DNA of 64,000 nucleotides from Escherichia coli (GTDB taxonomy: Bacteria; Pseudomonadota; Gammaproteobacteria; Enterobacterales; Enterobacteriaceae): assembly GCF_001677475.2 (NCBI RefSeq), contig NZ_CP015229.1. One strand, given 5' to 3'. Within the stretch, counting starts at the first letter, position 1; every line of letters starts with the position of its first letter. The notes under the pieces are model-generated. The model was given only the letters and a program-made list of their open reading frames with translations, was not told the origin of the DNA and made no database searches. The translations under genes were made by a program, and so were the position numbers. Below are positions 4,665 through 47,733 of the stretch, in pieces.

Positions 4665-4760
4665 AGATTGCCTGATGCGCTATGCTTATCAGGCCTACGC
4701 AGTACCTGCAATATATTGAATCTGCAGGACTTTGTAGGCCGGATAAGGCGTTATGAACTG
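4665..4760. repeat. REP/BIME-like palindromic repeats downstream of ybiT
   Basis: gcctgatgcgctatgcttatcaggcctac and gtaggccggataaggcg match the E. coli REP consensus in opposite orientations. Confidence 0.55.
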
Positions 4761-35005: not shown

Positions 35006-35179
35006 TAGATAAATTTTAGGCAACAAAAAACCCACCAACCTTGAACCGAAATGGCGGGGTTGATGGGCTCCACAAAATGGGGACATCAAAGAAAAGCAGT
35101 GGCACTAATTAAGACTGATGCCCTGCGGAAAAGTTCTGCGGTTGTGCAAAAAAATTTCATTTTCAGGGCAACTTCAGTT

Positions 35180-45554: not shown

Positions 45555-46682
45555 ATGCAGTGCGCACTTTACGACGCGGGTCGCTGTCGTTCCTGTCAGT
45601 GGATAACGCAGCCGATTCCAGAGCAACTCTCCGCTAAAACCGCCGATCTTAAAAATCTGCTCGCCGATTTTCCGGTTGAGGAATGGTGCGCGCCGGTGTC
45701 AGGCCCGGAACAAGGGTTTCGTAATAAAGCCAAAATGGTGGTGAGTGGTAGCGTTGAAAAACCACTGCTCGGTATGCTGCATCGAGATGGCACACCGGAA
45801 GACCTTTGTGACTGCCCGCTTTATCCTGCCTCATTTGCGCCCGTTTTTGCGGCGCTAAAACCGTTTATCGCCCGAGCGGGGTTAACGCCCTACAACGTGG
45901 CGCGTAAGCGTGGCGAACTGAAATACATTCTGCTGACTGAAAGCCAGAGCGATGGCGGCATGATGCTGCGCTTTGTACTGCGTTCTGATACCAAGCTGGC
46001 GCAACTGCGTAAGGCGCTGCCGTGGTTACAGGAACAACTACCGCAGCTGAAAGTTATTACCGTCAATATTCAGCCGGTACATATGGCGATTATGGAAGGG
46101 GAGACGGAGATCTACCTGACTGAACAACAGGCGCTGGCAGAGCGTTTTAATGACGTACCGCTGTGGATCCGTCCGCAAAGTTTCTTCCAGACTAATCCGG
46201 CGGTCGCCAGCCAGTTGTACGCCACCGCGCGCGACTGGGTACGACAGCTGCCGGTTAAACATATGTGGGATCTGTTCTGCGGTGTGGGGGGCTTTGGTTT
46301 ACACTGCGCGACGCCTGACATGCAGTTAACCGGGATCGAAATTGCGCCAGAGGCCATTGCCTGTGCAAAGCAGTCAGCTGCTGAACTGGGCTTAACGCGT
46401 CTGCAATTTCAGGCGCTGGACTCCACTCAGTTTGCCACTGCTCAGGGGGAGGTGCCGGAGCTGGTGCTGGTTAACCCGCCGCGCCGCGGCATTGGTAAAC
46501 CGCTGTGTGATTATCTCTCAACGATGGCACCGCGTTTTATCATCTACTCCAGCTGTAACGCCCAAACTATGGCGAAAGATATCCGCGAACTGCCTGGTTA
46601 TCGCATCGAACGGGTACAGCTTTTTGATATGTTCCCGCACACCGCGCACTATGAAGTGCTGACGCTGCTGGTGAAGCAATAA
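45555..46682 (+). CDS. rlmC: 23S rRNA (uracil747-C5)-methyltransferase RlmC (RumB)
   Basis: 375-aa ORF with N-terminal Cys cluster (CRSCQW...C) and SAM-MTase motif [10 protein letters not shown]. Confidence 0.9.
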
Positions 46683-46710
46683 AAAAGCCGCAGGTGCGGC
46701 TTTCTGAATC
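46683..46710. terminator. Bidirectional terminator between rlmC and artJ
   Basis: aaaaaagccgcaggtgcggctttctg: stem gccgca/tgcggc with flanking A-run and T-run. Confidence 0.65.
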
Positions 46711-47442
46711 TTACTGTGGGAACCACTGGTCATTGATTTTCTGATATGTACCGTCAGCTTTAATTGCTGCCAGCGCATTATTCAGTTTTTCCAGCAGAGC
46801 TTTGTTATCCGGACGTACAGCGATACCCAGGCCGGTGCCGAAGTATTGCGGGTCGGTTACTTTCTCAGTCGCAACGCCCAGTTGCGGATTGGTTTTCAGC
46901 CACTCATTAACTACCGCTGTATCACCAAATACCCCATCAATACGACCATTTTTCAGGTCGATAAATGCATTCTGATAACTGTCATAAGAGACGGTTTTCA
47001 CTTCCGGATGCTGATCCTGAATATATTTCTGGTGGGTAGTGCCGTTTTCCATACCAATACGTTTACCTTTCAGGTCGGCAAAAGTCTTATAGGTATCTTT
47101 TTTGGCAATCACAACGGCTGAGTTTTCGTAATAGGGGGTGGTAAAGGCGACCTGTTTGCTACGTTCCGGGGTGATATCCATACCGGAGATTACGGCGTCA
47201 TATTTTCTGAATTTCAGTGACGGGATCAGGCTGTCGAAAGCGTGATTCGTAAAAGTACATTCTGCCTGCATTTGTTTACACAAGGCTTTTGCCAGGTCGA
47301 TATCAAAGCCGACAATCTCATTATTAGCACCTATAGATTCAAAGGGTGGATAGGTGGCTGAAACGCCAAAATTGATTTTCTCTGCGGCAGAAGCGCCGAA
47401 CGCACAGGATGCCAGTAAAGCGGCAAGAACTAACTTTTTCAT
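46711..47442 (-). CDS. artJ: Arginine ABC transporter periplasmic binding protein ArtJ
   Basis: 243-aa product from MKKLVLAALLASCAFGASAA; paralogue of ArtI. Confidence 0.9.
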   Translation of the reverse strand: MKKLVLAALLASCAFGASAAEKINFGVSATYPPFESIGANNEIVGFDIDLAKALCKQMQAECTFTNHAFDSLIPSLKFRKYDAVISGMDITPERSKQVAFTTPYYENSAVVIAKKDTYKTFADLKGKRIGMENGTTHQKYIQDQHPEVKTVSYDSYQNAFIDLKNGRIDGVFGDTAVVNEWLKTNPQLGVATEKVTDPQYFGTGLGIAVRPDNKALLEKLNNALAAIKADGTYQKINDQWFPQ

Positions 47443-47554
47443 GATGGAACTCCCGTCTGTCAATCTTATGATTTTTGGCCGTGTCTGCGGCATGGGATAA
47501 CAATGCCATCAAGTGAATTTATATGCAATAAATATGATTAAATAATTTAAATGA

Positions 47555-47592
47555 AATAAAAAAAGACGGACAACTTAGTGAGTTGTCCGTCT
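47555..47592 (-). terminator. Rho-independent terminator downstream of the artPIQM operon
   Basis: gacggacaact/agttgtccgtc hairpin (47565-47591) preceded on the plus strand by an A-run, which is a T-run after the hairpin on the minus strand. Confidence 0.65.
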
Positions 47593-47617
47593 TCATTATA
47601 AGAATTTATGCACTATG

Positions 47618-47703
47618 TAGGCCGGATAAGGCGTCCACGCCGCATCCGGCACAGGCACCGTGCTGATGTCTGATGCGACGCTGGCGCGTCTTATCAGACC
47701 TAC
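47618..47703. repeat. REP/BIME palindromic repeat pair between artM and artJ
   Basis: gtaggccggataaggcgtccacgccgcatccggcac and gatgtctgatgcgacgctggcgcgtcttatcagacctac, both REP-consensus-like. Confidence 0.6.
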
Positions 47704-47733
47704 AAACCCCCCCGGCGAATGTACGCAGCTACA

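Follow-up and report, generated by a model that had tools for sequence, protein, structure and literature searches.

Stem-loops formed by REPs in 3′ UTRs can halt exonucleases that act 3′→5′ (PMC10100675; PMC6061677), and REPs have been described both as context-dependent stabilisers and as partial terminators (bioRxiv 10.64898/2026.03.23.713779; PMC10100675). About 13% of the mapped E. coli intrinsic terminators are associated with REPs (PMC6061677), so that the combination of a REP and a terminator is commonplace. At the art locus, artPIQM and artJ each have a sigma-70 promoter of their own, and two 18-bp ARG boxes 3 bp apart overlap the -35 element of artJ (PMC6640053). Naville and Gautheret (2010) listed an element upstream of artJ in a BIME cluster (PMC2965389), and 'REP83a-b' is listed against artJ/artPIQM in a 2023 paper (PMC10100675); since K-12 has two BIMEs at the art locus, this name is not assignable to one of them. 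The arrangement analyzed here is thus already known in substance, the BIME near artJ, the operon organisation and the ArgR operator all having been published, while a conserved TG(C/A)ATAA that keeps a constant spacing of 85 bp to ARG box 2 is mildly new.

The art elements resemble several described systems. Like E. coli REP/BIME-2 elements (Y, Z2), the art pair consists of two imperfect palindromes, each ~35 nt long and bearing a GTAG/CTAC tail, that are oppositely oriented and joined by a short linker; it occupies an extragenic 3′-UTR site and belongs to a family with many copies per genome. Classic BIME-2 arrays, however, have several units, whereas the art locus has a single Y-Z2 unit. The pair also passes the gathering score of naRNA4/REP325 (RF02564, the yjdM-yjdN BIME-2 array), and both are REPs between tandem genes. 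The art REPs precede a strong terminator, whereas for REP325, with its 12 hairpins, an adjacent intrinsic terminator is not described; the best art match to naRNA4, moreover, falls on the plus strand, the antisense of the art mRNA. In the known REP stabilisers (malE-malF, osmC, yghA) the REP lies at or near the 3′ end of the transcript, whereas the art REPs are internal and the terminator hairpin is 3′-terminal. In its G+C-rich stem of 14 bp, loop of 5 nt, U7 tract, position 140-180 nt past the stop codon and covariation, that hairpin is like the canonical Rho-independent terminators that close operons. Compared with them it is unusual only in having an ArgR operator a few bases from its U-tract and a conserved motif upstream of its stem.

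The window, by which we mean the whole 64,000-nt stretch of DNA that was analyzed, is from Escherichia coli and carries the art genes on its minus strand (Table 1). The ArtM protein is 100% identical to MG1655 ArtM, and the interval is annotated artM/artJ across thousands of E. coli genomes. The 171 bases at 47590-47760 are 100% identical in strains M8 and MB06171. An earlier note, made from the sequence alone, had described a strong hairpin terminator followed by two REP copies. Its coordinates are accurate and all of these elements are present, but their order is reversed, since transcription runs along the minus strand and meets the REPs first.

Table 1. Coordinates of art genes and intergenic elements in the window.
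Feature	Position	Strand	Remarks
artI	49125-49856	minus	
artQ	48402-49118	minus	
artM, last gene of artPIQM	47734-48402	minus	from the ORF list; stop TAA 47736-47734
Intergenic region artM-artJ			291 nt; order of transcription: artM stop, Z2 REP, Y REP, TGCATAA, hairpin + T7, ARG boxes, artJ
Spacer from artM stop to first REP			30 nt
Z2-type REP	47668-47703	canonical on plus	first REP met by the art transcript
Head-to-head linker between the REPs	47651-47667		17 nt; inside the Rfam naRNA4 match 47620-47700
Y-type REP	47617-47650	canonical on minus (mRNA) strand	in every E. coli allele examined
TGCATAA motif, ARG half-box-like	47606-47612	minus	3 nt past the Y REP
Intrinsic terminator of artPIQM	47552-47594	minus	14-bp stem, 5-nt loop, T7ATTT
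Putative ARG boxes, artJ operator	47512-47550	minus	box 1 47550-47533, box 2 47529-47512; 3 bp apart
artJ, separate transcription unit	46711-47442	minus	ATG 47442

The core of the terminator is a perfect 13-bp inverted repeat (47563-47575 and 47581-47593) with a loop of 5 nt. A terminator scan extended the stem to 14 pairs, 6 of them G-C, reading on the minus strand from 47594 to 47562 and continuing into TTTTATTTCA. The folding energy of the hairpin RNA, -21.3 kcal/mol, stands far outside the values for shuffled sequences (-5.1 +/- 2.2 kcal/mol; z = -7.5), and none of 200 shuffles folded as well. When the whole 192-nt 3′ UTR was folded, the hairpin formed in both the MFE and the centroid structures, independently of the REP hairpins. 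The U-tract is found on the minus strand only; the corresponding tail on the plus strand reads UUCAUUAU, which rules out a bidirectional terminator. Terminator-like sites as a class are not above chance in the surrounding 2 kb (3 found, 2.2 expected), so that the case for termination rests on the strength and conservation of this particular hairpin. A perfect TATAAT lies 5 nt before the stem; it was rejected as a promoter within the 3′ UTR, having no -35 element, not being reported by the promoter scan and not being conserved in other genera.

Published Term-seq data (Adams et al. 2021, PMC7815308) place minus-strand 3′ ends at MG1655 899644, the artJ terminator, and at 903889, the ybjP terminator. 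Among the Term-seq entries listed there is no 3′ end in MG1655 900500-900899, where the U-tract (47555-47561) would fall at about 900688-900693; this may be due to low artPIQM expression, but it lends the terminator no support. None of the rows listed bears the names artM or artJ (PMC7815308).

To follow the hairpin through the family, the artM-artJ region was taken from 80 Enterobacteriaceae species, 75 intergenic regions were extracted, and the presence of a hairpin in these relatives was scored with RNAfold together with an alignment-based count. A hairpin with a T-run ending ~120 nt upstream of the artJ ATG is found in 73 of 75 aligned regions, a count that includes the window and leaves out Enterobacter sp. 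kpr-6 (L066). Stem sequences vary from species to species, for example GACGGACAAC/GTTGTCCGTC, GCGGGTAACC/GGTTATCCGC and GCGGCTATC/GATAGCCGC, while pairing is kept. Across the 75 species, 88% of the cells in the stem alignment are paired, a share that falls to 32-48% after shifting the 3′ partners by 1-3 columns. Compensatory changes occur in 7 of the 11 stem pairs, and double-change cells number 141, compared with 62 +/- 9 in shuffles. Two exceptions were found. In Escherichia sp. MOD1-EC7003 (L006) the T-run of the terminator is broken (TCTTTCCTCATC); the intergenic region of this strain (2170-2592) has grown to 423 nt through a tandem duplication of ~129 bp that comprises the last ~25 nt of artM and the Y and Z2 REPs. 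In Enterobacter sp. kpr-6 (L066, 2170-2472), about three copies of a different palindromic repeat, of the CCCTCTCCCTCAGGGAGAGGG type, replace both the TGCATAA motif and the terminator; the ARG boxes and the artJ leader of this strain are intact. One further region (L071) is borderline, having five Ts only.

The comparative evidence argues strongly for a functional terminator that would divide artPIQM from artJ throughout the family, in agreement with the published separate sigma-70 promoters of artJ and artPIQM (PMC6640053). The strong hairpin terminator of the earlier note is hence borne out: it is on the correct strand, lies downstream of artM, has all the sequence features of an intrinsic terminator, and is conserved with covariation.

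The REP identity of the two upstream palindromes is equally clear. The Y REP, canonical on the minus strand, reads GCCGGATGCGGCGTGGACGCCTTATCCGGCCTAC, and the Z2 REP, canonical on the plus strand, reads GTCTGATGCGACGCTGGCGCGTCTTATCAGACCTAC. A REP consensus search, which the earlier note had proposed as a check, was run; each copy agrees with the pattern of its type (Y or Z2) without a mismatch, and none of 100 shuffles gave a match. Assignment to the Y and Z2 types relies on sequences that we take to be the consensus of each type, together with a Y-like consensus quoted in the literature. From that published consensus, GCCGGATGCGGCGTGAACGCCTTATCCGGCCTACGA (PMC12306157), the Y REP differs at 1 of the first 34 positions. 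Each REP is a palindrome in its own right, with 14-nt arms of 86% complementarity (inverted repeats I4 and I5). Folded singly, the Y REP reaches -21.9 kcal/mol and the Z2 REP -20.1 kcal/mol (z = -4.7); folded together, the pair can reach -47.9 kcal/mol. With Z2 and Y in opposite orientation and 17 nt between them, the pair qualifies as BIME-2, as a single unit only. Both copies are extragenic, lying between the artM stop codon and the terminator, and from this position upstream of the terminator they would be co-transcribed with artM.

Against the Rfam model naRNA4 (RF02564), the pair scores 78.5 bits on the plus strand, above the gathering score of 59.5, and 47 bits on the minus strand. Since RF02564 was built on one Z2-Y unit, it is in effect a model of a single BIME-2 unit, and we treat the match as one to a repeat family and not to a distinct RNA gene. 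Promoter-like sites on the strand that would yield the naRNA4 sense RNA (plus) were no commoner than in shuffles (2 found, 2.9 expected), and for this reason the promoter-like site at 47518-47546 was discarded as the driver of a naRNA4-sense transcript. Used as a megablast query, the region matched 39,115 places in E. coli genomes, with a median of 6 per genome and a maximum of 19; these are undercounts because the search needs an exact word of 28 nt.

In E. coli and its relatives, the REPs at this site come and go. The two-REP allele is present in 3,408 of 5,426 complete E. coli genomes (63%), counted as genomes covering at least 80% of a query that needs both REPs and their flanks. In most of the remaining E. 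coli genomes the locus is 66 bp shorter; this short allele has the Y REP alone, without Z2 (aligned examples ST38, BEN2908 and N1). E. albertii and one Escherichia sp. carry a Y REP, then a Z2 REP, then the remnant of a second Y, while E. whittamii and strain E69 resemble the window allele. Such a distribution fits a Y-Z2-Y ancestor that would have lost different units in different lineages; independent REP insertions could also have produced it.

Outside Escherichia, the naRNA4 model finds nothing at the artM-artJ loci of Enterobacteriaceae. In most genera the intergenic region is 150-180 nt long and has no REP, and in species without a REP 2-13 nt separate the artM stop codon from the GCATA of the TGCATAA motif. 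In Citrobacter, Salmonella and Enterobacter this slot is taken by REPs of other types. Across the species compared, the repeats seen there are of at least four kinds: Y/Z2, Z1/Y, the Enterobacter GCCGGGTAAGCG type, and decayed Salmonella REPs. Extra sequence of more than 20 nt, mostly REPs or other repeats, separates the artM stop codon from TGCATAA in 26 of 69 species; in these 26, none of it lies downstream of the motif, between TGCATAA and artJ.

We are fairly confident that the hairpin at 47552-47594 is the ancestral artPIQM terminator, and that the REPs were inserted later, in Escherichia only, and are dispensable for the split between the two operons. RNA polymerase starting at the artP promoter would transcribe the two REPs and then the stem and U7 tract, where the transcript would be released; termination in vivo at the U-tract is what we infer from the features described above. 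Transcription of artJ would depend solely on its own ArgR-controlled promoter, starting a few bases beyond the terminator. The terminator hairpin would then be the 3′-terminal structure shielding the artPIQM mRNA, with the REPs internal to the message. Any effect of the REPs on art mRNA would at most be modulatory: as extra stem-loops they may retard 3′→5′ degradation after nucleases have passed the terminator hairpin, or they may cause partial Rho-linked attenuation.

The earlier note had held that the terminator and the REP pair explain the separate transcription of artJ. This stands for the terminator and fails for the REP pair, since most genera have the same terminator and promoter without any REP. 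As most genera are REP-less and about a third of E. coli genomes are without Z2, we conclude that the REP pair is not the cause of the split. The note's further suggestion, stabilisation of the upstream mRNA, is plausible for these REPs by analogy with other REPs, but any such protection would be partly redundant, because the downstream terminator hairpin already protects the 3′ end. With a strong terminator directly downstream, a stabilising role is hard to tell from none. REPs that regulate translation of the upstream gene are those within 15 nt of its stop codon (PMC12306157); we rejected REP-mediated translational control of artM, given that the GTAGG tail of the first REP is 30 nt from the stop codon and not within 15 nt.

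It is quite possible, at a little under even odds, that the REPs are functionally neutral, selfish or merely tolerated insertions, kept because the bases between the artM stop codon and the conserved block are unconstrained. Within Escherichia, presence or absence and copy number change exactly at REP boundaries, as expected from loss out of a Y-Z2-Y arrangement; unrelated repeat families fill the same slot in Citrobacter, Salmonella and Enterobacter; and insertions are never seen between TGCATAA and artJ. For terminal REPs in general, a large variance and no general effect on half-life were reported (bioRxiv 10.64898/2026.03.23.713779). The repeated, independent filling of the slot could, however, equally mean that repeats are beneficial there, and the retention of the Y REP in all E. 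coli alleles seen also speaks against neutrality.

The reverse assignment of roles, in which the REP pair (BIME) is the main boundary, acting by partly Rho-dependent attenuation and by stabilising the artPIQM mRNA while the hairpin serves as a back-up, we regard as unlikely. It has precedents: REP325 is a partial Rho-dependent terminator and stabilises upstream mRNA, and where REPs lie between tandem genes, expression is biased towards the upstream gene (bioRxiv 10.64898/2026.03.23.713779). A computational screen assigned the element that precedes artJ to a BIME 'attenuator' cluster (PMC2965389), and each REP folds stably, as can the pair. Yet dozens of REP-less genera share the operon split, the terminator and the artJ promoter, the Z2 REP is missing from about a third of E. 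coli genomes, and a strong canonical terminator sits 22 nt downstream of the Y REP. These observations favor the ancestral terminator as the boundary.

An action of the BIME on DNA and not via RNA, as a gyrase, Pol I or HU site relieving supercoiling between the transcription units, appears improbable. BIME-2 elements were reportedly identified as gyrase targets by Espeli and Boccard in 1997, and the Rfam match is to naRNA4, which was once proposed to act with HU on the nucleoid. Against this, no measurable role of REP325/naRNA4 in the nucleoid or in long-range contacts was found (bioRxiv 10.64898/2026.03.23.713779), and the best Rfam match at the art locus is antisense to the art mRNA, on a strand that has no promoter above chance.

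The artJ operator starts directly past the terminator tail; its two boxes, presumably the published artJ ARG boxes, score 12/16 (box 1) and 15/16 (box 2) against the ARG-box consensus, and their starts are 21 bp apart. On the other side of the hairpin, within the artM 3′ UTR, a TG(C/A)ATAA motif has G, C, A, T and A conserved at 90% or more across the 75 species. In the window the motif precedes the stem core by 17 nt, or by 14 nt if all 14 pairs of the stem are counted. In 66 of 69 species, 85 +/- 1 bp separate it from the TTGCATA of ARG box 2, while the intervening sequence diverges and indels are common elsewhere in the region. TGCATAA itself scores 12/16 against the ARG-box consensus. A variant of the motif, TGAATAC (L036, L075), equals the canonical half-box TGAAT of ARG boxes, and the alternation of C and A recurs in box 2.

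ArgR hexamers protect ~93 bp in vivo, and at hisJ a stabilising site is located ~90 bp from the ARG boxes (PMC4381063). Of the art elements, only the TGCATAA motif can be likened to the upstream ArgR-stabilising site of hisJQMP, by its position: the hisJQMP site and the candidate artJ site both lie ~85-90 bp upstream of a canonical ARG box pair, and in both the gene is an ArgR-repressed periplasmic binding-protein gene. It is reasonable to regard TGCATAA as a candidate distal ArgR contact, and the fixed distance between motif and ARG box hints at an artJ operator extending beyond the two published boxes. A bolder and doubtful extension would place the artPIQM terminator inside an extended, spacing-constrained artJ control region, with TG(C/A)ATAA as a distal ARG half-box 85 bp (~8 helical turns) from box 2, touched by the two spare subunits of an ArgR hexamer around which the terminator DNA would be wrapped. 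If true, the distal half-box would explain why REP insertion is limited to a slot of at most 13 nt between the artM stop codon and the motif in many genera, and possibly also why artJ is far more arginine-repressible than artP.

A role of TGCATAA as the seed of a 3′-UTR sRNA is less likely and appears weaker than that of a distal ArgR contact. The corresponding scenario, in which TGCATAA, the A-rich spacer, the hairpin and the U-tract would together be released as a 3′-UTR-derived Hfq-type sRNA, the hairpin serving both this RNA and termination, is very unlikely: in most genera a conserved 7-nt motif is followed by a variable A-rich spacer and by a strong terminator whose U tail is long, as in the general layout of 3′-UTR sRNAs, but no Rfam family matches, we found no publication tying artM to an sRNA, Hfq or RIL-seq, the interval has no 3′ end among the Term-seq entries listed (PMC7815308), and the C/A alternation of the motif and its fixed 85 bp to ARG box 2 better fit an ArgR half-site read in the DNA.

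On the far side of the operator, the artJ leader (47465-47495, minus strand) is highly conserved across genera. Among its elements are a small hairpin (GCCGCAGACACGGC) and, ahead of the start codon, ATCATAAGATTGACAGACGGGAG; the near-invariant TGGCATTGT in this leader may be an extended -10 element.

Taken as a whole, the region is a normal enterobacterial operon end, in which an ancient terminator separates the genes and mobile REPs have settled in unconstrained bases of the 3′ UTR, and it has little importance beyond correct annotation. It does offer a clean natural case of REP turnover: across thousands of genomes, this one locus exists in alleles that have two REPs, one REP or a rearranged set. 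These natural alleles could serve as a series for testing the effect of REPs on mRNA stability or read-through beside a terminator.

A second REP insertion is found on the other side of artJ in K-12. Between rlmC and artJ, K-12 (MG1655 899645-899844; L001 2646-2845) carries a 170-bp insertion that is absent from the window strain (46682-46711). A Y REP and a Z1-type REP joined by a long linker make up this BIME-1-like insertion, which is flanked by a duplicated rlmC/artJ terminator hairpin. Elsewhere in the window, Rfam matches above the gathering score were obtained for the RybB sRNA (35022-35100, minus strand, 104 bits) and for ES036/CssrF (4691-4733, minus strand, 41.6 bits). Among the relatives, a stretch downstream of artJ in Citrobacter sp. 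Cu233 (L031 3322-3515) strongly matches Ysr251 in Rfam (135.8 bits).
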